DNA of 64,000 bases from contig CP060262.1 of assembly GCA_022646745.1 (NCBI GenBank), forward strand, positions 1,495,149 through 1,559,148, in the 5' to 3' direction. The position numbers and the translations under genes were made by a program. The stretch comes from Planctomycetales bacterium. GTDB lineage: Bacteria; 4484-113; JAFGCY01. The notes below the pieces were generated by a model, which saw only the letters and a list, made by a program, of their open reading frames with translations, was not told the origin of the DNA and did no database searches. Positions 5,852-47,660 of this stretch are shown here, piece after piece. Every line of letters begins with the position of its first letter. Positions within the stretch are counted from its first letter, which is position 1.

Positions 5852-6604
5852 TCAGCGGGCCATGTCCAGCTGGTCCATTGTCCGCTCCAGCAATGCCTCC
5901 AGTTCAGCGGTCATCAGCTGCTGGCGCTTGATCTCCGGGAGCAGCAGAGCGCGCACTTCGCGTGCATTTGCGGAAGTACGGATGCTCAGGAGAAGTTTCT
6001 CCACATGCCGTGGCTGGGCCTCCTGTCGCAGCAGGCGGTACATCACGCTCAGGCGCACCCACTGGAACAGCTCATTGTCGTGCTCGTCGCGATAGAGCAG
6101 GAACTGCTCGTAGGCCCGTGAAATGGTTTCGATGTCATTGTGCCTGAAGGCGAAGTTCGAAGCGAAATACCATTGCTCCGTATGCATCTCATGGAAGTCC
6201 AGGTCTGAGAACAGGCAGCGGAACTCACTGATCTGCAGGGGCTCAAGCTTCATGTTGTCCGCGATGATGCGCAACTGAAGGTAGTAACGGCGGCGGGTCA
6301 GGTCGCTTTCCGGGCCATGGGTCCGCCGCAGCAGCCTCTCCCGGGCAAGCGGGTACTCCAGCTCAGCCTTGCCCGCTTCGCGAAATGCCACATGTCGCAG
6401 GAATCCAAGGTATGACACCACCATGTCAATTGCGTCCGCCATGTCCCGGTCCATCTCTTCAGCGGAGATGATCGCAAGCGCACGCGCATGCAATTCATTG
6501 AATCGATTCACATCAAGCTGGTTGAGGGCTTCCGCCATTGGATCCATCAGATCCACATACCATTGGGCCCTGGAATAGCTAAGCATTTTCTTCAAGCCTG
6601 ACAA
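5852..6604 (-). CDS. hypothetical alpha-helical protein
   Basis: 250-aa ORF with coding-like GC3 bias. No recognisable motifs. Sits 107 nt upstream of the permease pair. Confidence 0.4.
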   Translation of the reverse strand: MSGLKKMLSYSRAQWYVDLMDPMAEALNQLDVNRFNELHARALAIISAEEMDRDMADAIDMVVSYLGFLRHVAFREAGKAELEYPLARERLLRRTHGPESDLTRRRYYLQLRIIADNMKLEPLQISEFRCLFSDLDFHEMHTEQWYFASNFAFRHNDIETISRAYEQFLLYRDEHDNELFQWVRLSVMYRLLRQEAQPRHVEKLLLSIRTSANAREVRALLLPEIKRQQLMTAELEALLERTMDQLDMAR

Positions 6605-6755
6605 GCAGGTCGCATCAGCACCACGGCATATTGCATGCCTGTTAGCGATAAAAGCTCCGAAGCGGAGTTACACGGTCCAATAGACCATACCAGCGCCGGG
6701 CAGATTACATTCTCAATATGAGGATTAATTCCCGGTTTGCAGAAAGGCAAAAATT

Positions 6756-6800
6756 AAATGTTGGAAAAATCAACATTTGGAATGCGTGTAATTACGCATT
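6756..6800. promoter_or_regulatory. two adjacent perfect palindromes in a divergent AT-rich promoter region (candidate operator sites)
   Basis: AAATGTTG-N7-CAACATTT at 6756..6778 and AATGCGT-N6-ACGCATT at 6781..6800. Between the divergent genes 5852..6604(-) and 6830..9136(+). Confidence 0.3.
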
Positions 6801-6829
6801 AGGTTTCATCCCTAGAATTTCCGGTAATA

Positions 6830-16795: not shown

Positions 16796-16925
16796 TGCTT
16801 GTCTCCTTTTGAGGACCTGGGAGCTTGGATCTTGGGTGTAGGGCAGGTGCAATGCCTTGGGTATTGCCCTGGGCACATTGTCGCGCATTGCGCGCCACTG
16901 ATGCCGGTCTGCTACACCTTACAAC

Positions 16926-17468
16926 CTAGCTCCCAGTTCCTTGATTCCATTCCTGGCGCGTGATCGCGTAGTAGGCGACCCCATGCCAGTTGCCACGGCT
17001 GCAGAACTCACAGGGCTTCAGGCCCCTGAGCTGCATGCCGCTCAGTTCCATGCTGCGCCGGGCAGCCCGGTGGCTGTCCAGCGTGTCCCCCCGGACGGTG
17101 CCCAGCGGGTGGTTGCCAAACAGCCAGCCGATCACCAGCCGCTTGGCCTCAACGCCGTATCCCCGCCCGCGCAGCTCCGGGTGGATGCGGGTGCCAAGCG
17201 TTGCCGACATCCTGAACCCGTCGGTGGATTCATAGTACTCGTTGCCGATGTGGCGGCCCGTTGCCAGCTCCTCGATCGCGAAGCAGCCGCGCTCGTCCAT
17301 GAACAGGCCGCTGCCTGCAAAGGCCTGCCTGTCGCGCATGCCCGGCGGGTTGATCGGCCCCCAGAAGGGATTGCCCTCCTTCTGCTCAAGTTGGCGCCAG
17401 GCCCGGTACTCCCCGTAGTCGCGGTAGGGCCTGAGCCGGATCCGCTCTCCGTTGACAATCAACTGCAT
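16926..17468 (-). CDS. GNAT family N-acetyltransferase, RimL/RimJ-like (array member 1)
   Basis: N-terminal IRLRPYRD motif. Core FAIEELATGRHIG. Motif A RGRGYGVEAKRL. C-terminus WNQG. SD AGGAGG. Confidence 0.75.
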   Translation of the reverse strand: MQLIVNGERIRLRPYRDYGEYRAWRQLEQKEGNPFWGPINPPGMRDRQAFAGSGLFMDERGCFAIEELATGRHIGNEYYESTDGFRMSATLGTRIHPELRGRGYGVEAKRLVIGWLFGNHPLGTVRGDTLDSHRAARRSMELSGMQLRGLKPCEFCSRGNWHGVAYYAITRQEWNQGTGS

Positions 17469-17469
17469 T

Positions 17470-18036
17470 TCAGCTGGCCCTCCTGACTGCGTGCCGGTAG
17501 TCCATCGCCGCCCAATCGCTGCGCAGCAGCTGGAAGGACAGCGTGCCTTCCCGCTGGCCATGCCGCCAGTGCACACAGGGCTTCAGCCCGGCCTGCCGCA
17601 TGCCACAGAGCTCCATGCCACGGATGGCGGCTGCATGCGTTGCCACTGTGATCGCGAACAGCGATTCCAGCGGGTAGTTCTCGAACAGGTAGCAGGCCAT
17701 CAGCTGCTTTGCCTCAACACCGTATCCGCGGCCCTGCCAGGCCGGACGGATGAATGTGCCGAGGTATGCGCTGATGCCCGGCAGCACACCCGTGCTGCTT
17801 TCCTCATAGCCAATCAGCGACCCGCTTTCCCGGCAGGCGACGGCGAAGATGTTCATGCCGGACTCGGAGATGTATCCGGCCGGTTCGAACTCCCGGCGCT
17901 GTCCGGCGATTGGCCAGTGGTGCGGTCCCCACTGGTCATTGCCGCACTCCAGTTCCTCGTGCACAAGCGTGAGGTATTCATCGACATCCCTGAACGGCCG
18001 GATAAGTGCCCGCTGGCCTTCATAAACCGTGTACAT
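17470..18036 (-). CDS. GNAT family N-acetyltransferase, RimL/RimJ-like (array member 2)
   Basis: MYTVYEGQRALIRPFRD. QGRGYGVEAKQL. C-terminus WAAMDYRHAVRRAS. SD GGAGGA with 6-nt spacing to ATG 18036 (the track starts at GTG 18042). Confidence 0.8.
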   Translation of the reverse strand: MYTVYEGQRALIRPFRDVDEYLTLVHEELECGNDQWGPHHWPIAGQRREFEPAGYISESGMNIFAVACRESGSLIGYEESSTGVLPGISAYLGTFIRPAWQGRGYGVEAKQLMACYLFENYPLESLFAITVATHAAAIRGMELCGMRQAGLKPCVHWRHGQREGTLSFQLLRSDWAAMDYRHAVRRAS

Positions 18037-18604
18037 GTCCACTCCTCCTTATTCCATGCCGGTAGTCCATCGCTGCCCACTCGCTGCGTGTAAGGTGGTA
18101 ATAGACTACGGCCTCATAGCGGCCCTGCCGGTAATGCACCGCCGGCCGGCAGCCGATGTAATTCATTCCACTCAGTTCCAGCCCACGGCGGGCCGGGGCA
18201 TGCGTTGACAATGTGTCAGCCATGATGCACTGCAAGGGCAAGTTCTCGAACAGCAGGCAGAACATCAGCTGCTTGGCTTCCATCCCGAAGCCGCGCTTCT
18301 GGTGAAGCGGGCGGATGAATGTGCCAACCCAGGCCACGAGGCGTGGCAATGTCAGCGGGCCGACCTCCTCGTAGCCGGCCACTTCGCCGGTGTCCAGCCG
18401 CTCAATACACATCATCAGTGAGCCGTCGGCTGACAGCATGCCATTCTCGTCAAACTGTCTGCGCAATTCATGCCCGCTGTGGTGCATCGGCCCCCAGTGG
18501 GCGTTCGGCTCGGCATGCTCCTCATGCACCAGCTGCAGCATCTCGTCTGCATCCCTGAAGGGCCGCAGCCGGACCAGTTGTCCTTCGTAAACCGTATGCA
18601 TCAT
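18020..18604 (-). CDS. GNAT family N-acetyltransferase, RimL/RimJ-like (array member 3; C-terminal extension overlapping member 2)
   Basis: MMHTVYEGQLVRLRPFRD. KRGFGMEAKQL. C-terminus WAAMDYRHGIRRSGHVHGL extends 6 aa past the family consensus end and overlaps the next gene by about 17-23 nt. Confidence 0.75.
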   Translation of the reverse strand: MMHTVYEGQLVRLRPFRDADEMLQLVHEEHAEPNAHWGPMHHSGHELRRQFDENGMLSADGSLMMCIERLDTGEVAGYEEVGPLTLPRLVAWVGTFIRPLHQKRGFGMEAKQLMFCLLFENLPLQCIMADTLSTHAPARRGLELSGMNYIGCRPAVHYRQGRYEAVVYYHLTRSEWAAMDYRHGIRRSGHVHGL

Positions 18605-19158
18605 CAGCTCCTGTGCACCCTGTGCCTGTAATCCATTGCCAGCCAGGCAGTGCGTGACAGGTTGAAATAGACCCGGTTGGCATACCTGCCGGCGCTGAAA
18701 TAGCTGGTGGCCTCACAACCCAGTGGCTGCATGCCGCAGAGCTGCAGTCCGCGGATGGCGCGGCTGTGCCCCGCCAGTGTCACCGCGAATATGTTCTCCA
18801 GCGGAAAGTTGTCAAACAGCAGGCAGGCCGCCAGCAGCTTTGCCTCAACGCCGTAGCCCCGGCGGCGGTGTCCTTCGAGCACATGCGTGCCCAGCCAGGC
18901 ACCGAGCCGATGCGGATGGATGTTCTCCTCGCCAACGAGCCGTCCCGTGCTGATTTCCTCGATTGCCATGCAGTATTCCTTCTGCTCATTCATTCCGCTG
19001 TAGTCATTGAACAGCGGACGATTCTGCTGCACGCTCTCGAACCAGGGACCCCAGTGCTCGCCGGGCTCATCAATGCCGATGCAGGCCAGGCTGTCCCATT
19101 CCGCGAGATCCCGGAATGGCCTGATCCTGACCTGTGGTCCTGTGTAGGTTGTGTACAT
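18604..19158 (-). CDS. GNAT family N-acetyltransferase, RimL/RimJ-like (array member 4)
   Basis: MYTTYTGPQVRIRPFRD. RRGYGVEAKLL. C-terminus WLAMDYRHRVHRS. SD GAGGAG with 6-nt spacing. Stop overlaps the member 3 start as TGATG. Confidence 0.8.
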   Translation of the reverse strand: MYTTYTGPQVRIRPFRDLAEWDSLACIGIDEPGEHWGPWFESVQQNRPLFNDYSGMNEQKEYCMAIEEISTGRLVGEENIHPHRLGAWLGTHVLEGHRRRGYGVEAKLLAACLLFDNFPLENIFAVTLAGHSRAIRGLQLCGMQPLGCEATSYFSAGRYANRVYFNLSRTAWLAMDYRHRVHRS

Positions 19159-19160
19159 GC

Positions 19161-19715
19161 TCAGCTCCTCTGCACCCTGTGGCGGTAGTCCATCGCCTCC
19201 CATTCACTGCGCAGCAGCTGGAAGTACACCGTGTCAACAAAGTGTCCTCGTACAAAATGGGATAAGCGGGTTCTGCCGACCTGCCGGAAGCCGACGGCCT
19301 CAAGGCCGGCGCGGCTGCGGCTGTGAACCGCCGTGGTATCGGACCATAGGGACTCGACCGGGAAGTTCTCAAACAGGAAGCAGAATGCCAGCAGCTTGGC
19401 CTCGCGCCCGAAGCCCTGGCTCATCTGCGCAGGAACAATGCCCGTCGCCGGGAAGGCGGATAGTTGCCAGCGGCCGATGCCGCAGTATTCCAGCCCGACG
19501 AATTCGCCGTTGTCAGTGCGCTCGATCGCGAAGGCGAAACTGTCCATTGAGATGGACAAGCGCTGCCACTCCGACGCGCTGCGCGCCGCCACATCCCACT
19601 GGATGCCGAGGTGCTCGTTGGGCGAGACCGCGTAGTTGCGTACATAGCCGGAGAACTCCGCCTCGCTGGCGAAGGGCCTGATCCGTACCTTCTCTCCTGT
19701 GTAAGTCGTATACAT
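19161..19715 (-). CDS. GNAT family N-acetyltransferase, RimL/RimJ-like (array member 5)
   Basis: MYTTYTGEKVRIRPFAS. GFGREAKLL. C-terminus WEAMDYRHRVQRS. SD AGGAG with 6-nt spacing to ATG 19715 (the track starts at TTG 19721). Confidence 0.8.
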   Translation of the reverse strand: MYTTYTGEKVRIRPFASEAEFSGYVRNYAVSPNEHLGIQWDVAARSASEWQRLSISMDSFAFAIERTDNGEFVGLEYCGIGRWQLSAFPATGIVPAQMSQGFGREAKLLAFCFLFENFPVESLWSDTTAVHSRSRAGLEAVGFRQVGRTRLSHFVRGHFVDTVYFQLLRSEWEAMDYRHRVQRS

Positions 19716-19717
19716 GT

Positions 19718-20272
19718 TCAACTCCTGGCAACTCCGTGCCGGTAATCCATCCGTTCCCAGTCCTTACGCAGCAGCTGGTACCAGACCTGGCCCTCGTTCT
19801 CCCCCTGCGATGGGAAGGCACAGGCCAGGATCCCGGCGAAGCGGTAGCCGATCGCCTCCAGCCCGGCGATCGCGCGGCTGTGCGTTGCCACCGTGTCAGA
19901 CCACAGTGACTCAATCGGGAAATTCTCGAACAGGTGGCAACTGGCCAGCAGCTTGGCTTCACGGCCGAAGCCGTTGTGCCAGTGCCGCTCCAGCAGTCCG
20001 GTGCCGGTGAAGCCGCTGAGTTGCCAGCGGCCCAGCCCGCAGGTGATCACACCAGCCAGCTCCCCCGAGTCCAGCCTGTCAACCGCAAAGCGGCAGACCG
20101 TATCCTCGGTCGGGAACAGATTCCAGACCTGCAAGGCTGAATTGGCAAAGTACCACTGCGGCCCGCGGTGGGCATTCGGCACCACTGCGTAATCGCGCGT
20201 GAAGCCGGCCCATTCCGCTTCCGAGGCGAATGGCCTGATGCGCACCAGTTGTCCCGTATATGTCGTGAACAT
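19718..20272 (-). CDS. GNAT family N-acetyltransferase, RimL/RimJ-like (array member 6)
   Basis: MFTTYTGQLVRIRPFAS. GFGREAKLL. C-terminus WERMDYRHGVARS. Confidence 0.8.
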   Translation of the reverse strand: MFTTYTGQLVRIRPFASEAEWAGFTRDYAVVPNAHRGPQWYFANSALQVWNLFPTEDTVCRFAVDRLDSGELAGVITCGLGRWQLSGFTGTGLLERHWHNGFGREAKLLASCHLFENFPIESLWSDTVATHSRAIAGLEAIGYRFAGILACAFPSQGENEGQVWYQLLRKDWERMDYRHGVARS

Positions 20273-20274
20273 TG

Positions 20275-20829
20275 TCAGCCTCGCCTGACGCTCTGCCTGA
20301 TCGGGAGCTTCTCCCAGTCCTCCCGCATGATCTGGTACTTCACCCTGGCAACCCGCGTGCCCCTGAAGCGGAATGAACAGGGGATCGTGCCGACATGCCT
20401 GAAGCCCAGCGCTTCCAGCCCGGCCCGCGCCCGGGTGTGTACCGAAAGGGTGTCGGCCCAGACGGACTCAATCGCGAAGTTCTCGAACAGGTGGCACATT
20501 GACAGCAGCTTGGCCTCGCGGCCGAAACCCAGGTGCCAGTGCTCCCGCAGGATCTCCGTGCCGACGCTGGCCGCCAGCTGGTAGGTGCCGAGCACCGCAC
20601 TGACCCAGCCGATGGCCTCACCGCTGTCCCGCCGTTCGATGCAGAAGCGTTCGGCGGCATCATGCGTGATCGAATTGCCAAAGCGCTTGCGGCTCTTGAT
20701 CGCGCGGTGCCAGTCGTCACCCCAGAAGTCACTGAGGGTGATGAACTGGCGGCTGGAGAACTTCCACAGCTCATCCGCATCCCGGAAGGGACGCAGCCTG
20801 ACCTGCTCACCTGTGTAGACAACATGCAT
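20275..20829 (-). CDS. GNAT family N-acetyltransferase, RimL/RimJ-like (array member 7)
   Basis: MHVVYTGEQVRLRPFRD. GFGREAKLL. C-terminus WEKLPIRQSVRRG. SD GGAG with 6-nt spacing. Confidence 0.8.
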   Translation of the reverse strand: MHVVYTGEQVRLRPFRDADELWKFSSRQFITLSDFWGDDWHRAIKSRKRFGNSITHDAAERFCIERRDSGEAIGWVSAVLGTYQLAASVGTEILREHWHLGFGREAKLLSMCHLFENFAIESVWADTLSVHTRARAGLEALGFRHVGTIPCSFRFRGTRVARVKYQIMREDWEKLPIRQSVRRG

Positions 20830-20852
20830 TTCTCACTCCAATAGTGGTTAGT

Positions 20853-20896
20853 AGTCAGTGGTCAGAATTCAGATCACTGACCTCAGACCACTGACT
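20853..20896. repeat. palindromic spacer element (GTCAGTGGTCAGA..TCAGACCACTGACT)
   Basis: Near-perfect 14-bp inverted repeat with a 16-nt loop in the 65-nt gap between array members 7 and 8. Same motif family as the spacers at 22604..22666 and 23224..23288. Confidence 0.6.
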
Positions 20897-21461
20897 ACCG
20901 GCCTCTCACCACTGTCTGCCGGATCGGCATCCTCTCCCAGTCCTCACGCATCACCTGGTACAGCGGCACGGCGACGTTCCTGTCACCATGCCAGTGGATG
21001 CAGCGGTACAGCCCGACCCGACGCATCCCGATAGCCAGCAGTCCGGCCTGGGCGCGGGTGTGCTCCGCCGTGGTATCCGCCCAGACAGTCTGGATCGGGA
21101 AATTCTCGAACAGGTGGCACAGCATCAGGAGCTTGGCCTCACGGCCGAAGCCCCGGCTCCAGTGCCGCCGGTCCACCACGGTGCCGAGCCATGTTGCCAG
21201 CCGGCCCGCCGGCGGCACACCGAAGCTTTCGATGCCGACACACTCTCCGGTGTCAAGCCGCTCGATTGCCAGGCTGTTCTCGCCCTTGTCATCCAGCAGT
21301 TCGCCGTCACTGAACTCGCGGTCAAGCTGGCTGGCAACTGTATGGTACGGCCCCCAGAAATCACTGTATGTGAACTCACGGGAGGCCTGCAGCTGCTGCC
21401 ATTCCTGCAGGTCCCTCACAGGACGCAGCCTGACCAGTTCGCCTGTATAGACATGGTTCAT
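20895..21461 (-). CDS. GNAT family N-acetyltransferase, RimL/RimJ-like (array member 8)
   Basis: MNHVYTGELVRLRPVRD. GFGREAKLL. C-terminus WERMPIRQTVVRGR. SD GGAGAGGA. Confidence 0.8.
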   Translation of the reverse strand: MNHVYTGELVRLRPVRDLQEWQQLQASREFTYSDFWGPYHTVASQLDREFSDGELLDDKGENSLAIERLDTGECVGIESFGVPPAGRLATWLGTVVDRRHWSRGFGREAKLLMLCHLFENFPIQTVWADTTAEHTRAQAGLLAIGMRRVGLYRCIHWHGDRNVAVPLYQVMREDWERMPIRQTVVRGR

Positions 21462-22021
21462 CAGTTTCCTCTCCTGACTGTCTGCCTGATCGGCATTGCT
21501 TCCCAGTCACTGCGCATCAGCTGGTAGTCCAGGATGTCAACATACTTCCCGTGCCAGTGGTAATGCCGCAGGCCGCCGGCCAGCCGGAATCCACAGGCCA
21601 GCAGTCCGCGTGATGCGGGCTCATGCTCGCCGGTGGTGCCGGCCCATACCGACTGCAGCGGGTAGTTCTCGAACAGGTGGCACAGCTTCAGCAGCTTCGC
21701 CTCCCGCCCCAGGCCGTGGCCCCAGCGTGACTCGAGCACGAATGTTGCCAGCCAGCAGGACAGCTCACCGGCCGAGGGCGTGCCATGCAGCGCCACACCT
21801 GCCACCACACCGTCACTGAGGTCCTCGATCGCATGGCAGGCTTCCTCGCCGCCGAGCAGGCCGTCAGCCTCGAATGCCTGCCTGAGCGCTGGTTCGCTAC
21901 TGTGCCAGGGACCCCAGAATGCATTCATGTGCAGGTCACGCTGGCCCTGCAGCTGCATGTACTCATCAAGGTCCCTGAACGGACGCAGCCGCACTCGCTC
22001 GCCTGTGTAGACGACATGCAT
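21461..22021 (-). CDS. GNAT family N-acetyltransferase, RimL/RimJ-like (array member 9)
   Basis: MHVVYTGERVRLRPFRD. GLGREAKLL. C-terminus WEAMPIRQTVRRGN. ATG 22021 has SD GAGG at 6 nt. The track extends to an alternative upstream start at 22066. Confidence 0.8.
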   Translation of the reverse strand: MHVVYTGERVRLRPFRDLDEYMQLQGQRDLHMNAFWGPWHSSEPALRQAFEADGLLGGEEACHAIEDLSDGVVAGVALHGTPSAGELSCWLATFVLESRWGHGLGREAKLLKLCHLFENYPLQSVWAGTTGEHEPASRGLLACGFRLAGGLRHYHWHGKYVDILDYQLMRSDWEAMPIRQTVRRGN

Positions 22022-22587
22022 CAGTGGCCTCGCTTCACAGATTGCCTGATTGGCAATTGTTCCCATTCATCGCGCAGGATCCTGTAGCAGGGCGATGGCA
22101 ACAGCCTGCCGCCTTTGTACAGGTAGCCGTAATGCTTTCCGGCCAGCTTCAGCCCACAGGCCTCCAGCCCGGCCTTGGCCCGGCTGTGTTCATCAGTCGT
22201 ATCTGACCAGACGCATTCGATCGGGTAGTTCTCGAACAGGTAGCAGAGGTTCAGGAGCTTGGCCTCGCGGCCAAAGCCCTTGCCCCAGTGCTCCCGCGCA
22301 ATGATCGTGCCGAGCCAGGTGTTCGTGCGCGCCGGATTCATCGCGCCGTACTCCTCGAAGCCGACGGCCTCGCCCGTGTCCAGCCGCTCAATCGCGAAGC
22401 AGGAATACTCGTCCGTTGACAGCATCCCGCCTGGCTCAAACTCCTTCTTCTTCTGGGCTTCAGCCCAGTGCCAGTCACCCCAGAACTCGTTGAAGTTGCT
22501 TTCCAGGGCACCCTGCACCTTCATCCATTCATCGAGGTCCCGAAAGGGCCTGATGCGGGTACGCTCACCCGTGTAAACGACTTGCAT
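22021..22587 (-). CDS. GNAT family N-acetyltransferase, RimL/RimJ-like (array member 10)
   Basis: MQVVYTGERTRIRPFRD. GFGREAKLL. C-terminus WEQLPIRQSVKRGH. Stop overlaps the member 9 start as TGATG. Confidence 0.8.
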   Translation of the reverse strand: MQVVYTGERTRIRPFRDLDEWMKVQGALESNFNEFWGDWHWAEAQKKKEFEPGGMLSTDEYSCFAIERLDTGEAVGFEEYGAMNPARTNTWLGTIIAREHWGKGFGREAKLLNLCYLFENYPIECVWSDTTDEHSRAKAGLEACGLKLAGKHYGYLYKGGRLLPSPCYRILRDEWEQLPIRQSVKRGH

Positions 22588-22603
22588 TTCAATACCTCAG
22601 TTG

Positions 22604-22666
22604 ACAGTGGTCAGTGGTCGGTGGTCAGAAATAAGAGGATCTGGCTTCTGACCACTGCCTACTGAC
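22604..22666. repeat. palindromic spacer element with GTGGTC(A/G) iterations
   Basis: cagtggtcagtggtcggtggtcagaa then a 15-nt loop then ttctgaccactgcctactgactac. Lies between array members 10 and 11. Confidence 0.6.
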
Positions 22667-23204
22667 TACTCTCCATCCATTCCTGCCGCGTGATGCCGCA
22701 GTACACGATCCCTGTCCACTCACCGCGCGAGTACCAGTTGACCCGTGTCCGTCCCAGCTCTCGCATCCCGCAGCTCAGCATCCCGCCGATCGCGGCTTCA
22801 TGCTTGGACAGGGTGCCGCCGTAGACCATCTCGACCGGGTAGTTGTCAAACAGCAGCTTCATGGCCAGCAACTTGGCCTCTCGGCCATAGCCCCTGCGCC
22901 AGTATGGCTCAAGGATCATCGTGCCGATCTCGGTGGCGGTGCGGCCTCCCGTCGGGATGCGCAGCACCTCGTAGCCGACCAGCTCCTTCCCGGCCAGGCT
23001 CTCGATTGCCAGGAAGGAGAAGTAGTGCGATTCGTCCAGCATGCCGAAGCGGGCCCAGTCCTGTTCCAGTGCGGACAGCCCGACCCAGCCATAGCCCCAC
23101 CAGTCGTCACGCTGCATCCACAGTTCATGGTTGAGCTGTGCATACTCGACCGCGCTGGCAAAGGGCCTGAGCCGGACCAGACTGCCTTCGATTGTCATTT
23201 GCAA
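22659..23204 (-). CDS. GNAT family N-acetyltransferase, RimL/RimJ-like (array member 11, most divergent of the 11)
   Basis: LVRLRPFAS. RRGYGREAKLL. LFDNYP. Probable TTG start at 23204 with SD GGAG at 7 nt. The first ATG at 23198 has poor SD spacing. Confidence 0.7.
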   Translation of the reverse strand: MQMTIEGSLVRLRPFASAVEYAQLNHELWMQRDDWWGYGWVGLSALEQDWARFGMLDESHYFSFLAIESLAGKELVGYEVLRIPTGGRTATEIGTMILEPYWRRGYGREAKLLAMKLLFDNYPVEMVYGGTLSKHEAAIGGMLSCGMRELGRTRVNWYSRGEWTGIVYCGITRQEWMESSQ

Positions 23205-23223
23205 ATCAGTGCTCCTTCGGAGC

Positions 23224-23288
23224 GGTCAGTGGTCGGTAGTCAGAAGTCAGATCAATTCATCTGCTTTAATCTGACCACTGACCACTGA
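23224..23288. repeat. palindromic spacer element (GGTCAGTGGTCGGTAGTCAGA..TCTGACCACTGACCACTGAC)
   Basis: Inverted repeat between array member 11 and the 12th GNAT gene. Confidence 0.6.
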
Positions 23289-23870
23289 CTACTTCCCGGC
23301 GAATTCCCGCCGCTGCTGCTCGGCCAGTTCGCGGTAGGCCGGTGCGATCCAGCCGTAGTGGTGCACCGCCACCGGTTCACCGAGCCACATCTGCATGCGC
23401 TCGAACACAACCTCCAGCTCATAGCCGCAGTCCTTCAGCCAGCCGGCCTTGGCGGCCTCCGGTTCGATGATCTCGCAGCCGATCCTGACGGGGTCGTGCC
23501 AGTCCATCATCAGCGACTCATAGGCCTTCAGGATGTCCATGCCGACTGCGTCGCGGTCAGCGATGTTGTCATCGACATGCACCGTGATCCAGTAGACCCG
23601 GTTCTGCCCGCGCTGCACGAGGAAGCCGACCACACCGCCGGCCTTGCGCACGGCGACGTAGTACTTCTCGCCGCTGCCCCACAGGCCGGGGTCCTTCTCG
23701 TCCTCGAACTTCTTCTTCAGCCGCTGCAGTGTCCAGGGCGTCGGCTTGCGTTCGCAGGGGTTCTGCGCCATCAGCGGTGCCAGCTGCTCGAGGTCCTTCT
23801 CGAGCACGGGGCGCAGCACGATATGCTCGCCCTCCACGAAACCGCGTTCGGTACTTGCGTTGTCAGTCAT
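23289..23870 (-). CDS. GNAT family N-acetyltransferase (distinct subfamily from the array)
   Basis: GEHIVLRPVLEKDLEQL N-terminal motif. GNAT core. SD AGGAGA with 6-nt spacing. Confidence 0.65.
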   Translation of the reverse strand: MTDNASTERGFVEGEHIVLRPVLEKDLEQLAPLMAQNPCERKPTPWTLQRLKKKFEDEKDPGLWGSGEKYYVAVRKAGGVVGFLVQRGQNRVYWITVHVDDNIADRDAVGMDILKAYESLMMDWHDPVRIGCEIIEPEAAKAGWLKDCGYELEVVFERMQMWLGEPVAVHHYGWIAPAYRELAEQQRREFAGK

Positions 23871-39480: not shown

Positions 39481-39582
39481 CTCAGGTTGCAGGGGGCTGG
39501 TTGCTGGTTGCAGAAGTAACCAGTAATGGATTTCAGTCCCGCGAAGCGGGACTACTGCAACCTGCAACCTGTAACCAGCAAC
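39481..39582. terminator. bidirectional terminator / nested palindromes between convergent genes
   Basis: CAGTCCCGC-gaag-GCGGGACTG core (39534..39557) nested in the GGTTGCTGGTTGCAG..CTGCAACC..CAGCAACC arms. The GGTTGCAGGGGGC motif also occurs at 47395. Confidence 0.45.
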
Positions 39583-40305
39583 CTAGTTCGACTTACTAGG
39601 CAGGTACGGAATCAGCCGCAGTGCCAGTTCGCGGATCACCTGGTGCTGCAGCCAGACCTTGCCCGGCCCGGTCAGCGTTGCCAGCGCCAGTCCCTCACCT
39701 GAAAGGAAGATGTTCTTCAGCTTCTTCTGGATTTCGAAGTTGTACTGCACTGTGTCCTCGAAGGCGGCGATGTGCCCGCTGTCAACCTTGATGGTCTGGC
39801 CGGCCTCCAGTTCCACCACGGATAGCTCGCCGTCAATCTCAAGGAACACCGTGCCCGGCCCGCTCATGCGCTGCAGGAAGAAGCCCTCACCGCCGAGGAA
39901 GCCCTTGCCGAGCCCGGTGGTCTCCATCTTGATCGTGCAGCTGTCCTGGCTGCACAGGAAGCTGCCGCGCTGGGCCACGAGGCTGCGCCCCGGCAGGATG
40001 TCGTAGGGCACGATGTGGCCCGGGAAGCTGGAGGCGAAGGCCACGCGCCCGCTCGACCCTTCAGCCTGGAAGTAGTTCAGGAACACGCTTTCGCCGGAGA
40101 TCGCGCGGTTCAGCGCGCCGCCCAGCATCCCCATCAGCCCGCCGCCGCTTTCCGGCATCGAGGTGTCGAGGTCGATGTTCGGGTCCATCCAGATCATCCC
40201 GCCGGTCTCGCTCATCACCCGCTGGCCCGGCTGCAGGTGCAGTTCCACGATCTGGTGGATCGTGCCGCGGATCTCATAGTTCAGTCCAGTTGCGCTGATT
40301 GCCAT
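39583..40305 (-). CDS. TIGR00266/AIM24-family protein
   Basis: About 240 aa from MAISATGLNYEIRG. Glycine-rich beta-rich sequence typical of DUF124/AIM24. Confidence 0.6.
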   Translation of the reverse strand: MAISATGLNYEIRGTIHQIVELHLQPGQRVMSETGGMIWMDPNIDLDTSMPESGGGLMGMLGGALNRAISGESVFLNYFQAEGSSGRVAFASSFPGHIVPYDILPGRSLVAQRGSFLCSQDSCTIKMETTGLGKGFLGGEGFFLQRMSGPGTVFLEIDGELSVVELEAGQTIKVDSGHIAAFEDTVQYNFEIQKKLKNIFLSGEGLALATLTGPGKVWLQHQVIRELALRLIPYLPSKSN

Positions 40306-40396: not shown

Positions 40397-42289
40397 ATGT
40401 CGAACAGCGGGGGTCACACAGTCGGGAGCGGGGCACTGCGCATTGAGTACGGCCCGCTGCCGCAGGTCCGGCAGGCCACAGACTATGCCGCACTGCTGGA
40501 GCAGTTCCGCGCTCCGCTGAGCATTGTGCTGCAAAGCGGCACAATCGTGTCCTTTGGCAACTCCTTCCCGCTGCTGCAGTTCGCGCTGGATTTCGCCGCC
40601 TGGTGCAGCCCGCATGCGTGGTGGCTGTTCGAGCACTACCCGCAGCTGCGTGATGAAATGGAGCACCTGCCCGGCGGACTGACGGCACAGGACTTCGCCC
40701 TGCTGGACGAGGAAGGTGACCTCATCATCGCGTTCAGCGCTGAGCCGCCGCAGCTCATCCGCGAGGACCTGTCCGCTGACAACGGGCTGGAACGGATCGA
40801 GCTCGGGATTGACAGCGCGGCCCTGCGCGAAATCGGCAGGTCGCTCCTGGTACACCTCGCCGCCAGCATCGCGTCCCAGTCCGGCTGGGACATCGCGCCG
40901 CTCATCACGCGCAGGCCGCAACGATTTCTCAAGAAGGCTCCTGGCCGCAGTGTGGCGCGCGAGCTGGACATCCTGAAACTGCTGGACTGGCCGGAGAGCA
41001 AGGGCAAGGTGGAGCAGGGGGAGTGGCATGCCGACTGGTGGCTGTACGAACCATCCGTTGACATTTCCGGGCCGGATGAGCTGATGCCGGTGATCACCGG
41101 CAGCCTTGTGCTGCGCCGCCGGGTGGCGGAGATGGTCCGCCTGCCGGATGTGCAGCTGCTGGAATTCCTGCACAGCGCACTGGACTGGCTGAGCGATGCC
41201 AGCCACCAGAGCATGCGCCTGCATCGGGGCAGCAGTGCCGGCGGACCGGTCTGGGGCGGTTTCGAACTCGGTGATCCCGCGACGGGCAAGCTGCTTTTGG
41301 CAATGCGCCGCCGGGGTAAGCGCATCGAACTGCTGAGCGGGGCCAACCCGGTGCGTGGCAATGAGGTGCCGGAGAAGGAATTCGGCCTGCTGCTGCTGGA
41401 ACTGGCAACGCAGCTGGTCCATGAGCTGCATGAACACACCGGCTGGTCTGCCCTGCCGCTGTTCGCGCGCCAGTCGATTTCGCTCAGGGAGCCCCGCCCG
41501 GCCGTGCTGCCGCGCTTCGATCTGCAGAAGCTGGTGCTGGAATGGCCCGGCAGCCGCAGCATTGCCGGCCGTGAAAAGCGCCTGCCCGCCGCCCAGGTGC
41601 CGAACATCCCGATGGAGGTGCTGCTGGAGGGGCCGAACGAGTCCTTCCCGGTGCAGGGACAGTCCGGCCTCGCACTGCAGGTTGACATCAGCCTGATGGA
41701 GCTGACGGCACTGCCCTCCACGCCGGCCGACCTGCAGGAGATGCTGCGCGCCGGGGTGACCGTCAGCCGCGGCAGCCGCCGCCTGCTGAATGTTGACAAC
41801 GGTGTGCCACTACTGGACTTCACGCTCAACTGCCTGATCTGGCTCTGCCGCCATGACAGCGTCAGCCCGGCCGCCAGCCGCGAGCGCGACCCGCGCCGCC
41901 GGGGCCGCCCGGTGGACTTCATCCTCGAATACCCCGGTGAGAATCCGCTGCGCATCGGCCTGCGCGAGGACCTGGATGGCTACCTGTTCGTGCTGGAGCG
42001 CGATGGCCAGCCGGCGGGATCGCACAATGTGGCAATCAGTCGCGGGGAATGCATGGTGCTGATGCTGGACATTGCCAGGGCACTGGTGCTGGCGGTGCAC
42101 CAGCGCTGGGGTTGGGACATCCGCACGCTGTTCGGCCCGCGCAGCTTCTACTTCAGCGAGCGCGCCCTGCAGCGGGCGGAGAGCATCGGCTACATGAATA
42201 TCGAGCGCGACGTGAAGGAACTGAGCGACTGGCGCAATGGCATCGCCCGCGACCCGGCGGGCTGCCTGTGGAACATCAAACTGTGGTAG
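40397..42289 (+). CDS. hypothetical protein with three internal repeats
   Basis: Recurrent about 200-aa modules centred on LL..LA..L..(S/T)GW(D/S)I.(P/T)LF (SLLVHLAASIASQSGWDIAPLI; LLLLELATQLVHELHEHTGWSALPLF; VLMLDIARALVLAVHQRWGWDIRTLF). Confidence 0.4.
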   Translation: MSNSGGHTVGSGALRIEYGPLPQVRQATDYAALLEQFRAPLSIVLQSGTIVSFGNSFPLLQFALDFAAWCSPHAWWLFEHYPQLRDEMEHLPGGLTAQDFALLDEEGDLIIAFSAEPPQLIREDLSADNGLERIELGIDSAALREIGRSLLVHLAASIASQSGWDIAPLITRRPQRFLKKAPGRSVARELDILKLLDWPESKGKVEQGEWHADWWLYEPSVDISGPDELMPVITGSLVLRRRVAEMVRLPDVQLLEFLHSALDWLSDASHQSMRLHRGSSAGGPVWGGFELGDPATGKLLLAMRRRGKRIELLSGANPVRGNEVPEKEFGLLLLELATQLVHELHEHTGWSALPLFARQSISLREPRPAVLPRFDLQKLVLEWPGSRSIAGREKRLPAAQVPNIPMEVLLEGPNESFPVQGQSGLALQVDISLMELTALPSTPADLQEMLRAGVTVSRGSRRLLNVDNGVPLLDFTLNCLIWLCRHDSVSPAASRERDPRRRGRPVDFILEYPGENPLRIGLREDLDGYLFVLERDGQPAGSHNVAISRGECMVLMLDIARALVLAVHQRWGWDIRTLFGPRSFYFSERALQRAESIGYMNIERDVKELSDWRNGIARDPAGCLWNIKLW

Positions 42290-42290
42290 C

Positions 42291-42444
42291 GGAGGTCAGC
42301 TGTAAAGCTGACAAGGAGGTCCGGTGTAAGCCGGGCCGGGAGATAGAGGAGTACACGGAGATTTCAACCACAGAGCCACAGAGAGCACAGAGATTTTCAG
42401 GGTATGTCTGAATAGTTGTCGGAGGTCAGCTGTAAAGCTGACAA
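42291..42444. repeat. two copies of the GGAGGTCAGCTGTAAAGCTGACAA stem-loop 130 nt apart
   Basis: Copies at 42291..42314 and 42421..42444, with CACAGAG iterations between them. A related GGAGGTCAGACGAAAGTCTGACAA occurs at 51508. Confidence 0.55.
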
Positions 42445-42507
42445 CGGGTTTCCGGTTTCGGGTTTCCGCAGAACGGATGCGGAGCTGCCGCACAACAGAC
42501 GCAAAGC

Positions 42508-42663
42508 TGCGTTTACGCCACGGCGTGAATGCCGTACAGCCGAGTGATCAGTAAACAGTGGTCAGTAGCGGCGCACGCCCCGTGCACCAGGGAGTGACTG
42601 CCGCGAAATGCGCCAGGCAGACTCGCCTTACTCAGGCTGCATCCTGCCTGCGGCGGGATGCAG
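42508..42663 (+). repeat. left copy of an about 150-bp direct repeat flanking the low-GC insertion
   Basis: About 85-90% identical to 43694..43839. The last about 70 nt (CTGCCGCGAAATGCGCCAGGCAGACTCGCCTTACTCAGGCT.CATCCTGCCTGCGGCGGGATGCAG) are essentially identical. Confidence 0.7.
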
Positions 42664-42838
42664 AACTATGTATGATTTGAGATTGGGAATGAACTGTTTG
42701 AACAAACACAGAGAACCCTATGTCACTCATGTTACGCAGTTTCAGTTAGGTTGCTGGGTTAATATTTGCTGACCGTGAAATTTACTTTGCCAATGCCCGT
42801 ATTGTGCTGATAAATGATAAGCATGCAAGGAGAATTTC

Positions 42839-43630
42839 TTGAAGAAAACTGGTTACATTGCTGTTTGGATGATAGTCGTCATTCTGTCAGCTTCATGGAC
42901 ATTACGCGCTGATGCATCTGACAACTTGCGAACGGAATCCGGATTTGACAAGGATGCCTTCTGCCAGCGGTTGATGGAAGAGGACTTCTCGGATCTGTTT
43001 GCTCAGTCCACCATCCTTGAGTATGGTTCTTCTTCCACCGGAGCAAATCAGCAGATCCAGGGCATGATTGACGCTGTCAGGCAGGAAGCAGAAGCAGGAA
43101 TGATTGAATCCCGCTCATTCACAGAGAAGGAACTGAAAATGCTGGGCATCCGGATTGTCAACGATCCCTCTGAGGAGTTTGGTTATCCCGAGTATGGGCA
43201 GTTCATGATGAGTCGGATACCGAGATCCATTTACGGGTATTACCAGAATCATCAGGTTATTCCTGACAATGCCCTTTCACTTCTTGAGTCCAGCAGTTGG
43301 CTTACACCTGAAGGCGAATCCGCATTTGATGAGCTTTCAAAGAATGAGCTTCTCAATGCGCTCCAGACCATGGTTGATCCCAGTACAGGGAAGCTCTACG
43401 ACGGATTCAACGACGAGAACTGGACTCCATTTGGCATTTATGCCTACCTGCCGCCGGAATCAGAGTGGGCTGGATTGGGATATGACCCGCAGTCATATCG
43501 AGTCGTCAAAATGGATGGTAACACTCCTGCCCCGGTTGAAGATTGGCCCCTGATCAGTGGCTTGCTTAGGGTAGTGATTTGGGGTGAGACCGAGGATAGC
43601 ATCCTCATCGACAGGATTTATTGCTGGTAG
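42839..43630 (+). CDS. secreted hypothetical protein on a low-GC (about 47%) insert
   Basis: Signal peptide MKKTGYIAVWMIVVILSASWTLRADA. No recognisable family. Composition clearly differs from the 63-66% GC flanks. Confidence 0.55.
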   Translation: MKKTGYIAVWMIVVILSASWTLRADASDNLRTESGFDKDAFCQRLMEEDFSDLFAQSTILEYGSSSTGANQQIQGMIDAVRQEAEAGMIESRSFTEKELKMLGIRIVNDPSEEFGYPEYGQFMMSRIPRSIYGYYQNHQVIPDNALSLLESSSWLTPEGESAFDELSKNELLNALQTMVDPSTGKLYDGFNDENWTPFGIYAYLPPESEWAGLGYDPQSYRVVKMDGNTPAPVEDWPLISGLLRVVIWGETEDSILIDRIYCW

Positions 43631-43693
43631 GAAATTCCGAATAGGACGCTTACCTCAGGAACATCTAGTTAAGGTGTTGGAGCTGCGGTTAGG

Positions 43694-43839
43694 CCACGGC
43701 GTGATTGCCGCACAATCTAGTGATCTGTTAACAGTGATCAGTAGCGGCGCACGCCTCGTGCGCGACGGAGTGGCTGCCGCGAAATGCGCCAGGCAGACTC
43801 GCCTTACTCAGGCTCCATCCTGCCTGCGGCGGGATGCAG
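43694..43839 (+). repeat. right copy of the about 150-bp direct repeat
   Basis: See 42508..42663. Confidence 0.7.
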
Positions 43840-43921
43840 CACCCCTGGTGGAGGCCAGTCACGCCCTGGCGTGACTGGCAATTGCCAAGCTTACAGTTTG
43901 GCCTCCGGCGGGTCTGACCTC

Positions 43922-45154
43922 CTAACCCCCCGCGGCACCCTTGCCAATCACACCGTGTCGTTCGCCGCAGCGGATGAAGGCCTCCACGCAGTGGTCGATC
44001 TGCTCCGTGGTGTGGCTCGCAGACAACTGCACGCGGATGCGGGCCTTGCCCATCGGCACCACCGGATGGCTGAAGCCGATCACGTAGATCCCCTCGTCCA
44101 GCATCGAGCGCGCCATGTCAGCAGCCAGGCGGGCATCGCCGAACATCACCGGCACGATCGGGCTCTCGCCCTGCACCAGCGTGAAGCCGGCGGCTTCCAT
44201 GCGCTTGCGGAAATGCGCGGCGTTGGCTTCCAGCGTGTCGCGCAACGCGGTGCTCCCCGACAGCATGTCCATCACTTCCAGCGCGCCGTAGATCACGGAG
44301 GGCGGCACCGCATTGCTGAACAGGTACGGGCGGCCGCGGTTGCGCAGCATGTTGACAATCTCCGCCGGGCCGGCCACCAGGCCGCCTGAGGCACCGCCGA
44401 GCGCCTTGCCGAGTGTGGTGGTGATCACGTCCACCTTGTCCATCACATTGTGGTGCTCATGCGTACCGCGCCCGGTCTTGCCAATGAAGCCGGTGGCGTG
44501 GCTGTCGTCAACCACGAGCAGCGCGCCGTACTTCTCGCACAATTCGGCGATGCGGTCCAGCGGCGCGATCATGCCGTCCATCGAGAACACGCCGTCGGTG
44601 ACGACGCACATGCTGCGGGCCTTGTCCTGCCACATCTGCAGCTTCTTCTCGAGGTGCTCCGCGTCACTGTTCTTGTAGGTGTCGCGCTGGGCCTCGCACA
44701 GGCGGATGCCGTCAATCAGCGAGGCGTGGATCAGGCGGTCGGAGATGATCACATCCTCCTTGCCGAAGAACACCTCGAAGAAGGCAGCGTTGGCATCGAA
44801 GCAGGAGGCGAACAGGATCGCCGCCGGCAGGCCGAGGAACTCAGCCAGCCGCTCTTCCAGCATGTTGTGGCTGTCCTGGGTGCCGCAGATGAAGCGCACG
44901 CTGGACATGCCGTAGCCACGCTCGTCGAGCCCCTTGTGGGCTGCTTCCACCACGCGCGGGTGGCTGGCCAGGCCAAGGTAGTTGTTGGCACAGAAGTTGA
45001 GCACCTTGCGCGCCGGGCTGCCGAGCGGGTATTCGACCTCGATCTCCACGCCCTGGGCGCTCTTGATGTAGCGCTCGTCCTTGGTCAGGCCGGCTTCGTC
45101 GACCTCCTTCAGCGTCTGCTGCAGCCTCTCGCGCAGCTCCTTCGTGTAGGCCAT
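43922..45154 (-). CDS. kbl: glycine C-acetyltransferase (2-amino-3-ketobutyrate CoA ligase)
   Basis: Near-collinear with E. coli Kbl: GLTKDERYIKSAQ, NFCANNYLGL, VRFICGTQDSH, PLP-lysine region TLGKALGG. Start MAYTKE at 45154. Confidence 0.8.
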   Translation of the reverse strand: MAYTKELRERLQQTLKEVDEAGLTKDERYIKSAQGVEIEVEYPLGSPARKVLNFCANNYLGLASHPRVVEAAHKGLDERGYGMSSVRFICGTQDSHNMLEERLAEFLGLPAAILFASCFDANAAFFEVFFGKEDVIISDRLIHASLIDGIRLCEAQRDTYKNSDAEHLEKKLQMWQDKARSMCVVTDGVFSMDGMIAPLDRIAELCEKYGALLVVDDSHATGFIGKTGRGTHEHHNVMDKVDVITTTLGKALGGASGGLVAGPAEIVNMLRNRGRPYLFSNAVPPSVIYGALEVMDMLSGSTALRDTLEANAAHFRKRMEAAGFTLVQGESPIVPVMFGDARLAADMARSMLDEGIYVIGFSHPVVPMGKARIRVQLSASHTTEQIDHCVEAFIRCGERHGVIGKGAAGG

Positions 45155-47394: not shown

Positions 47395-47660
47395 TCAAGG
47401 TTTGCAGGGGGCAGGTTGCAGGGGGCAGGTATGACTGGAGGTCAGTCCCGCGCAGCAGGACTGACCAGGGGTGCTGCATCCCGCCGCAGGCAGGATGCAG
47501 TTCTATTTCTGCATACCGCCGGCAATGCGTTTAAGACCATGAAAGCAGGCAAACGAAGCGAGCTTCCGACATTGCTTCCGTGTGCTTGAAGTAATGTCAA
47601 TCCTGCTTCGCGGGATTGACCTCCTATAGTCAGTCCTGCTGCGCGGGACTGACATCCAGC
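47395..47660. repeat. cluster of REP-like stem-loops
   Basis: Tandem GGTTGCAGGGGGCAGG x2. GTCAGTCCCGCGCAGCAGGACTGAC (47441..47465). GCATCC-N12-GGATGC (47476..47498). CAATCC-N10-GGATTG (47598..47618). GTCAGTCC-N9-GGACTGAC (47629..47653). Confidence 0.55.

Follow-up and report, generated by a model that had tools for sequence, protein, structure and literature searches.

We analyzed a 64,000-nucleotide stretch of DNA from a Planctomycetales bacterium (referred to throughout as the window), focusing on a GC-poor open reading frame, ORF263, that lies with a pair of 162-nt direct repeats in the spacer between up630 and a convergent kbl-like aminotransferase gene (kbl). The 1014 nt between the repeats were 47.1% GC and ORF263 itself was 49.2%, compared with 62.2% for the window. 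When GC content was calculated in 800-nt segments across the 64 kb (mean 0.622, sd 0.032), it fell to a minimum of 0.475 at ORF263, ~4.6 sd lower than the mean and the deepest trough of the window, which reached into the non-coding nucleotides 42667–42838. An initial reading of this DNA by a model that had only the letters and their translated frames (the sequence-only reading) had described the segment as strikingly lower in GC than its flanks, and these values bear that out. The only other dip, at ~6600–6830, turned out to be merely an AT-rich divergent promoter region. By codon position, the GC fractions of ORF263 were 0.52, 0.40, and 0.55, the last of which (GC3) compares with 0.68–0.90 for the neighboring genes that were clearly in frame.

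The two repeat copies (A and B, or R_A and R_B) are on the same strand, align without gaps at 145 of 162 positions (90%), and start 1176 nt apart, with R_A placed 215 nt downstream of the up630 stop codon and 172 nt upstream of the ORF263 start. Their 17 mismatches are unevenly distributed, with 15 in the first 93 nt and only 2 in the last 69 (Fisher p = 0.008), such that divergence is 10.5% overall and 16% in the 5′ 93 nt. The sequence-only reading was therefore correct that repeats bracket the gene and that their 3′ 70 nt are essentially identical, but it had begun copy B at 43694, ~10 nt too far to the right of the true start; its other coordinates were accurate (Table 1). At the search setting used, this pair was the only long direct repeat of the window outside regions of protein-coding paralogs or domain repeats, and the full 162-nt unit occurred exactly twice. 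Its GC content resembles that of the host.

ORF263 has the marks of a genuine gene. The sequence AAGGAG (42827–42832) stands 6 nt ahead of its TTG start codon, and the encoded protein begins with an N-terminal Sec-type signal peptide (MKKTGYIAVWMIVVILSASWTLRADA/SD). In a BLAST comparison with a related locus, L013 (GCA_041395205.1), the block 42750–43632 aligned to 9927–10818 with 85.3% identity, and the part of this block that precedes the start codon is the putative promoter of ORF263, although a consensus scan returned no sigma-70 promoter site for the gene. Compared with its only close homolog (P0001, the L013 ortholog, 84% identical), ORF263 had a ratio of nonsynonymous to synonymous divergence (dN/dS) of 0.175, which indicates a real gene under purifying selection.

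As the sequence-only reading had stated, the protein falls into no recognizable family: none was assigned from Pfam, NCBIfam, PHROG, or PADLOC, and close sequence clusters numbered only two among 5.8 billion proteins. When 1.84 billion representative proteins were searched with a profile, 16 distant relatives emerged (P0008–P0023; E values from 5e-11 to 2e-4), many of them 245–270 amino acids long with signal or lipoprotein leaders, and none containing a Pfam domain. They have in common the motifs (N/D)PxTGKLYxSFxxxxWTPFGI and YGExPGSxL. The family to which ORF263 belongs is sparse and has no name, its members being secreted proteins or lipoproteins, and ORF263 itself is probably exported or located at the surface. 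An AlphaFold2 model built from a 14-sequence alignment was an alpha/beta fold with a predicted local distance difference test score (pLDDT) of 84.7 and a predicted template modeling score (pTM) of 0.78; with a two-sequence alignment, pLDDT was 32. Foldseek searches with the model against PDB and BFVD yielded nothing at E < 0.1, a profile search of PDB returned signal-peptide-level noise only, and tblastn against phages and plasmids produced no match. The fold of the family is thus predicted with confidence, but none of its relatives has a solved structure. In one contig (L047, sample ERZ27309061), the ORF263 allele carries a TAT (Tyr215) to TAG change at 43483 that cuts the protein to 214 amino acids, and is otherwise identical to the window across 42759–43651.

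The contigs that encode exactly the same ORF263 protein were all 99–100% identical to the window. At greater distance, L013 has ORF263 in the same synteny, with 49% GC between flanks of 65–72% GC and with amino acid identities to the window of 90% for kbl, 87.5% for AIM24, 94.7% for ffh, and 55% for up630 (~85% nucleotide identity in the best-aligned flank). Three of the five related loci lack it. The closest relative (L014/L015, ~95% nucleotide identity) passes from up630 to kbl across 123 nt, with homology to the window ending at 42314 and restarting at 43962; in L017 (up630 42% identical at the amino acid level) up630 joins kbl directly; and in L016 (up630 54% identical) kbl and the acyl carrier protein gene are missing too. 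No copy of the repeat is present at the empty sites of L014/L015 or L017. The sequence-only reading had proposed that a foreign gene entered, or duplicated, a single pre-existing repeat, and had anticipated one repeat copy at the empty site. The 1.2-kb segment is indeed missing from L014/L015, L016, and L017, but with the 162-nt repeat absent from the empty sites, no evidence supports that mode of insertion. Because the closest relative lacks the gene and one sample carries a nonsense allele of it, ORF263 is dispensable.

Table 1. Features of the ORF263 locus, numbered from the first letter of the window. L013, L014, and L017 are related loci; REP-like hairpins resemble repetitive extragenic palindromic sequences.
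Feature	Position	Strand	Remarks
up630	40397–42289	+	630-amino-acid protein, no family
REP-like hairpin CGGAGGTCAGCTGTAAAGCTGACAA, copy 1	42290–42314	+	Directly after up630 stop; single copy at same place in L013 and L014
Window-specific insert	42315–42419	+	105 nt; includes another hairpin variant, GGAGGTCCGGTGTAAGCCGGG, and CACAGAG in three units; not in L013 or L014
REP-like hairpin, copy 2	42420–42444	+	25/25 identical to copy 1
Repeat copy A (R_A)	42505–42666	+	162 nt; 63% GC; five predicted local hairpins on + strand
Terminal REP-like hairpin of R_A, GCATCCTGCCTGCGGCGGGATGC	42639–42661	+	
AT-rich stretch	42667–42749		83 nt; not conserved in L013
Upstream block: putative promoter and 5′ leader of ORF263	42750–42838	+	Conserved with L013
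ORF263	42839–43630	+	TTG start; 263 amino acids; secreted protein of unnamed family
Spacer from ORF263 stop to R_B	43631–43680		50 nt
Repeat copy B (R_B)	43681–43842	+	162 nt; 63% GC; begins 50 nt past ORF263 stop
Terminal REP-like hairpin of R_B, CCATCCTGCCTGCGGCGGGATGC	43815–43837	+	Position kept in L013
Palindromic hairpin GGCCAGTCACGCCCTGGCGTGACTGGC	43854–43879	.	Related hairpin in L014 empty site
REP-like hairpins, reverse orientation, TGCCAAGCTTACAGTTTGGCCTCCGGCGGGTCTGACCTCC	43880–43921	-	Conserved with L013
kbl-like aminotransferase gene	Stop at 43922	-	Convergent with up630
kbl 3′ end	43922–43961	-	C terminus …GKGAAGG(stop) in window, …KD(I/V)GAGS(stop) in L013 and L014
Third terminal-hairpin copy, inverted	47476–47498	-	Downstream of ffh; kept there in L013 and L017

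The ages of the gene and of its repeats could be compared through these relatives. Between the window and L013, synonymous divergence (dS) was 0.49 for ORF263 and 0.30–0.45 for kbl, ffh, and AIM24, and nucleotide identity was 85.3% for the ORF263 block and 84.5% for the right flank. ORF263 has thus diverged in step with its flanks, which places it at the locus before the window and L013 lineages separated. The recent arrival implied by the sequence-only reading does not survive this comparison, as the L013 ortholog sits at the same locus, is equally low in GC, and differs from the window gene about as much as the neighbors do. The repeats tell of a shorter history. The proportion of synonymous differences (pS) was 0.11–0.15 between the window and L014 and 0.25–0.36 between the window and L013, and the divergence between copies A and B is close to the former and far lower than the latter, indicating that the repeat pair, or its last homogenization, dates from around the time when the L014 lineage split off. 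Because they are younger than the residence of ORF263 at the locus, the repeats cannot be an unchanged scar left by its original insertion.

What the repeats are made of points to the host. Both copies terminate in a GCATCC/CCATCC-TGCCTGCGGCG-GGATGC hairpin, and the REP-like character that the sequence-only reading had assigned to their motifs was upheld by counts: the window has 3 instances of the hairpin ATCCYGCC-N3-GGCRGGAT where 0.02 were expected, the third copy being the one retained downstream of ffh in L013 and L017, and CAGTGRTCAG occurs 7 times against 0.5 expected. The repeat motif CAGTGGTCAG is found also in hairpin-type spacers at 20.8–23.3 kb. Because the terminal hairpin and CAGTGGTCAG recur in other spacers, the repeat is assembled from intergenic motifs of the host. 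This recurrence would also be expected if the two copies were chance neighbors, members of an abundant intergenic family, of the type of REP sequences, bacterial interspersed mosaic elements (BIMEs), or REP doublets forming hairpins (REPINs), that occurs at most gene boundaries, which the sequence-only reading had named as an outcome that would undo its proposal. We consider this explanation very improbable, because only ~30 of the 162 nt recur, whereas the full unit is confined to its two copies in 64 kb, no full-length copy was found in ~60 kb of related loci or, by blastn of the segment, in plasmids, and scans of three sequence collections yielded no true match.

Each of these scans used one exact short pattern, which diverged copies would escape. 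The 20-mer CCGCGAAATGCGCCAGGCAG had 11 matches in GTDB species representatives (a set that excludes the source genome and did not return its own two copies), all with only 18–27 nt in common and in coding or unrelated sequence; the 20-mer AGACTCGCCTTACTCAGGCT had 2 matches in JGI metagenomes, both within a coding sequence; and the 18-mer GCCACGGCGTGAWTGCCG had 10 matches in IMG/VR, all attributable to chance. In Rfam the repeats had no match at E ≤ 10 (42200–44000), and nothing relevant appeared at the gathering threshold in the whole window. As for structure, folding z scores on the + strand were -4.0 for copy A and -2.65 for copy B, compared with -1.2 for the - strand of copy A, and both strands form several local hairpins rather than a single long one. 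A consensus fold of the two copies contained two compensatory pairs, and when the structure was taken from one copy only, the other broke a number of pairs that was not clearly lower than random (P = 0.05–0.14), values that come from an alignment of two sequences only.

L013 has its own direct repeat around the ORF263 ortholog, 73 nt long and 86% identical between copies (9682–9754 and 10836–10908). The REP hairpin is all that it has in common with the window repeat, and in inverted orientation; the interiors could not be aligned. A covariance model of the window repeat found a weak full-length match (18.2 bits) exactly on the L013 3′ flank at 10834–10987, with the same AGCTGC start, terminal hairpin, and GCAG-YAC-CCCTGG end. 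The ends of R_B and its terminal hairpin are kept in L013 at the corresponding position. The window and L013 thus both have the 3′-flank module of ORF263, or part of it, copied upstream of the gene. Different genome-specific repeats around the same gene in two species suggest either concerted evolution of the islet flanks or repeated recombination between them.

Taken together, these observations lead us to favor, tentatively and with somewhat less than even confidence, the view that ORF263 is an old, acquired, dispensable islet in a recombination-prone, hairpin-rich terminator region, and that its flanking repeats are secondary, evolving in concert or re-created locally. The GC content of 47–49% (versus 62%), the GC3 of 55% (versus 68–90%), and the patchy distribution among close relatives are those of an acquired islet. 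According to this reading, a foreign core consisting of the ~90-nt leader and ORF263 would have been acquired horizontally into the spacer of the convergent up630 and kbl genes, and would have been present in the common ancestor of the window and L013 lineages, with a later loss from one close relative (L014) or more. It is only the matching divergence and the common position that favor a single old gain. The 162-nt repeats would be two copies of a multi-hairpin 3′-flank module of host composition that ends in a REP-like terminator hairpin, with copy A closing the up630 transcription unit before the islet promoter and copy B closing ORF263, a putative terminator or insulator role. The terminal hairpin of R_B is probably part of a two-way terminator with the convergent kbl, although a consensus scan for intrinsic terminators found none. 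Because L013 has the same layout with an unrelated repeat interior, we infer that gene conversion or unequal recombination between the flanks may maintain the likeness of the pair in each genome, or that the pair may be re-created locally. The near-identical 3′ 69 nt would then be either the latest tract of conversion or the part under most constraint. The copies could delete or amplify ORF263 through RecA-type recombination, which would make the gene easy to lose.

The repeat pair could also have arisen without conversion, if a piece of the 3′ flank had been copied upstream independently in each lineage, by replication slippage or by unequal exchange between REP hairpins, to give functionless duplications whose uneven divergence reflects constraint on the terminator part only. 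The age of the pair, near the window–L014 split and younger than the residence of the gene, would fit such neutral duplications, as would the absence of homology between the window and L013 repeats. Moreover, the same spacer holds another fresh duplication: at 42290–42444, a perfect 25-nt direct repeat brackets the 105-nt insert, and because L013 and L014 hold one copy of this hairpin, a clean empty site, we read the arrangement as a small, recent, repeat-bracketed insertion in the window lineage. Nonetheless, two independent events would be needed at a similar position, 172–258 nt upstream of the same gene, with the same 3′ flank as the source in both lineages, and we regard this alternative as unlikely, albeit one to be taken seriously.

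Several points weigh against the islet reading that we favor. The terminal hairpin supplies ~14 of the 18.2 bits of the covariance match in L013, which leaves orthology of the repeat interiors at most putative. Neither a single deletion nor simple recombination between the two repeat copies turns the window sequence into the empty site of L014, as its hairpin modules are ordered differently and no repeat copy is left. The case for gene conversion is made with no outgroup copy of the repeat, one gain and one loss are formally as parsimonious as two gains, and the copy number of the repeat in the source genome was covered for the 64-kb window only. Finally, a GC content below that of the neighboring genes is seen in distant homologs of ORF263 as well, and low GC may therefore characterize the protein family as such instead of marking a transfer: P0021 (L029/L030, gene 116–877) has 51.8% GC and a GC3 of 57% among neighbors of 63–68% GC, and P0024 (L048, gene 1532–1948) has 58% GC against 65%. 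All three members of the family whose DNA was examined are GC-poorer than their hosts.

This last point is the core of a further alternative, namely that ORF263 is a native gene of a family that intrinsically keeps a low GC3, its patchiness reflecting repeated loss only. In line with it, the GC3 of the window and L013 orthologs has stayed the same (53–55%) in two lineages at a dS of ~0.5. However, a family that often moves predicts consistently low GC in different hosts equally well, and a native gene would not be expected to be absent from most of the related loci, the closest relative included, to have so few close sequence clusters, or to lie in a GC trough that extends into adjoining non-coding DNA. 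We therefore judge a native origin rather unlikely, though less so than the mobile readings considered next.

Could the repeats be recombination sites, like the attC of an integron or the att sites of a cis-mobilizable element without an integrase, such that a recombinase from another part of the genome cut out ORF263 and one repeat copy as a circle and inserted them again? The locus has features that such a cassette would have: a single ORF between same-strand structured repeats 1176 nt apart, a GC-poor and patchily distributed cargo, and better folding of the + strand than of the - strand. Moreover, ORF263 is bracketed in two species by repeats that are alike within a genome and different between genomes, much as the attC sites of chromosomal integrons are species-specific. 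An attC site is a 57–141-nt imperfect palindrome that ends with complementary RYYYAAC and GTTRRRY boxes, and clusters of attC sites without an integrase are known as CALIN elements (PMC4889954). Here, GTTAGGC lies near the 5′ end of copy B without an RYYYAAC partner at the other end, copy A has GTTTACG in that place, and neither copy is an imperfect palindrome from end to end. Although the spacing of the repeats fits the CALIN criterion that we applied (two or more attC sites in 4 kb), the repeats are not attC sites, and there is one cassette only. No integrase, transposase, or other recombinase domain was found among the genes called within ~8–10 kb on either side, a result that draws on the gene tables of contigs 95–100% identical to the window and that agrees with the sequence-only reading.

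Other kinds of mobile element fared no better. For an island flanked by att sites one would look for a tRNA or tmRNA gene, of which ARAGORN found none in the 64 kb, or for a repeat derived from a flanking gene, and the 162-nt repeat matched no flanking gene. For a miniature inverted-repeat transposable element or insertion sequence, the inverted matches were palindromic hairpins only, and the unit had just its two copies. Together with the empty sites that lack a repeat copy, the divergence of ORF263 in step with its neighbors, and the host-like GC of the repeats, these results make the recombination-site explanation improbable. Of the sequence-only reading's cassette-like, horizontally acquired gene, the foreign composition and the presence/absence polymorphism stand and the marks of a mobile element do not; its miniature mobile element carrying cargo is likewise left, within the sequence covered, without a recombinase, terminal inverted repeats, attC boxes, or further copies. 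On the islet reading that we favor, the 162-nt repeats are not mobile-element ends.

A more speculative version, in which repeat, gene, and repeat form a cassette of an undescribed non-integron system with a REPIN-like structured repeat in the role of attC, is in our estimate slightly less probable still. Its details, to which we give equally little credence, would be that cycles of excision and re-insertion homogenize the repeat within each genome and so render it species-specific, that a family of GC-poor genes for secreted proteins travels as cargo between high-GC bacteria and always lands in hairpin-rich terminator regions, and that a 23S_rRNA_IVP-like gene in L013 and L014 is a second example. 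That second low-GC single gene lies between a GHL15-like gene and AIM24 (6595–7194 in L014, 6252–6629 in L013; absent from the window, at 39497–39591), has 52–53% GC and a GC3 of 56–60%, and matches Pfam 23S_rRNA_IVP (bAvd-like). Inverted repeat arms lie on either side of the gene, 32 nt long in L014 and consisting of up to 146 nt of 36-nt tandem units in L013. Only if a cassette reading were true would current understanding be changed.

The surrounding spacers show the same hairpin-rich character as the islet flanks. For GGAGGTCA, the head of the 25-nt hairpin, the window has 8 occurrences where 2.6 were expected. The last codons of kbl have been swapped in the window lineage by a small rearrangement among REP hairpins, and a 13-nt match between the window and the L014 empty site, GTTGGAGCTGCGG, was of marginal significance. 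Spacers between convergent genes (39485–39580 and 47400–47660 in the window, 6670–6790 in L017, and others in L013 and L014) have repeats of the motifs GGTTGCAGG, GGAGCTGGGGTGTAG, and GGTTCTAGG on one side, their reverse complements on the other, and a central REP hairpin, a terminator-like layout found lineage-wide. On the - strand at 16900–23300 lies a tandem array of ~10 paralogous genes of ~185–200 amino acids, the spacers of which contain GGTCAGT-type repeats and their inverted complements; the counterpart region in L016 encodes Acetyltransf_3 domains. In another contig (L011, 3148–3210), the end of R_A (window 42663) is fused to the reverse complement of 47470–47438, the inverted hairpin region downstream of ffh. 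This junction is most likely an assembly artefact formed through a near-palindromic 30-nt hairpin, with an inversion variant as the alternative.

Variation was also seen among the contigs closest to the window. Three of them (L002, L003, and L005) are identical to the window through the islet and then switch, from 44120 or 44297 (44120–44436), to a third kbl haplotype that is ~9% divergent from both the window and L014, and the three are either true recombinants or chimeras that arose in the assembly of strains living side by side. L049, a metagenome contig, has an in-frame internal deletion in up630 (window 41124–41303) that shortens the protein from 630 to 566 amino acids, and is otherwise 100% identical to the window, extending through repeat copy A. 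An alternative haplotype suggested by contigs that end at 43660 (L044 and L045) was discarded, as a further contig of that sample, L047, stops at 43651 and does not overlap them, which makes a coverage gap the likelier cause.

Among known systems, cis-mobilizable elements, described in the Streptococcus thermophilus literature, are att-flanked remnants of integrative elements that hold cargo between direct repeats and have no recombination genes of their own. The ORF263 islet resembles them in both respects. It differs in that no conserved gene or tRNA serves as its target, its repeats have host composition, and these repeats are much longer than the att cores of such elements; we also know of no complete element related to the islet. 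With integron cassettes and CALIN elements the islet has in common a compositionally odd cargo that encodes a secreted protein of no known family. It lacks their R″/L″/L′/R′ boxes and single long imperfect hairpin, ORF263 comes with its own conserved ~90-nt leader, only one cassette is present, and the empty site has no repeat. The likeness to REP, BIME, and REPIN sequences lies in GC-rich hairpins that stand at gene ends, recur across spacers, and cluster in mosaics, with two such hairpins in inverted orientation in the L013 3′ flank. Unlike those sequences, however, the 162-nt unit is not multi-copy in the sequence searched, its 5′ hairpin is only weakly REP-like, and no gene for a REP-associated tyrosine transposase (RAYT) was seen there.

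Because ORF263 is older than its repeats, and because these repeats are made of host intergenic hairpins, the locus carries a lesson, which is that a foreign gene between direct repeats does not by itself imply a recent insertion or a mobile element. An apt parallel is PAIusp of E. coli and Salmonella bongori, an integrase-less islet in the aroP–pdhR spacer (PMC7142922). PAIusp, too, is a short accessory block with neither integrase nor tRNA that occupies the same spacer in different species, and it raises the same question of a single old acquisition versus a preferred integration site; the ORF263 islet differs in being a single gene with long, 162-nt flanking direct repeats of host type, in an uncultured bacterium labeled Planctomycetales by NCBI. 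The ORF263 islet is therefore comparable to known small, acquired, integrase-less islets, and its unusual aspect is the different pair of repeats around the same gene in each of two species.

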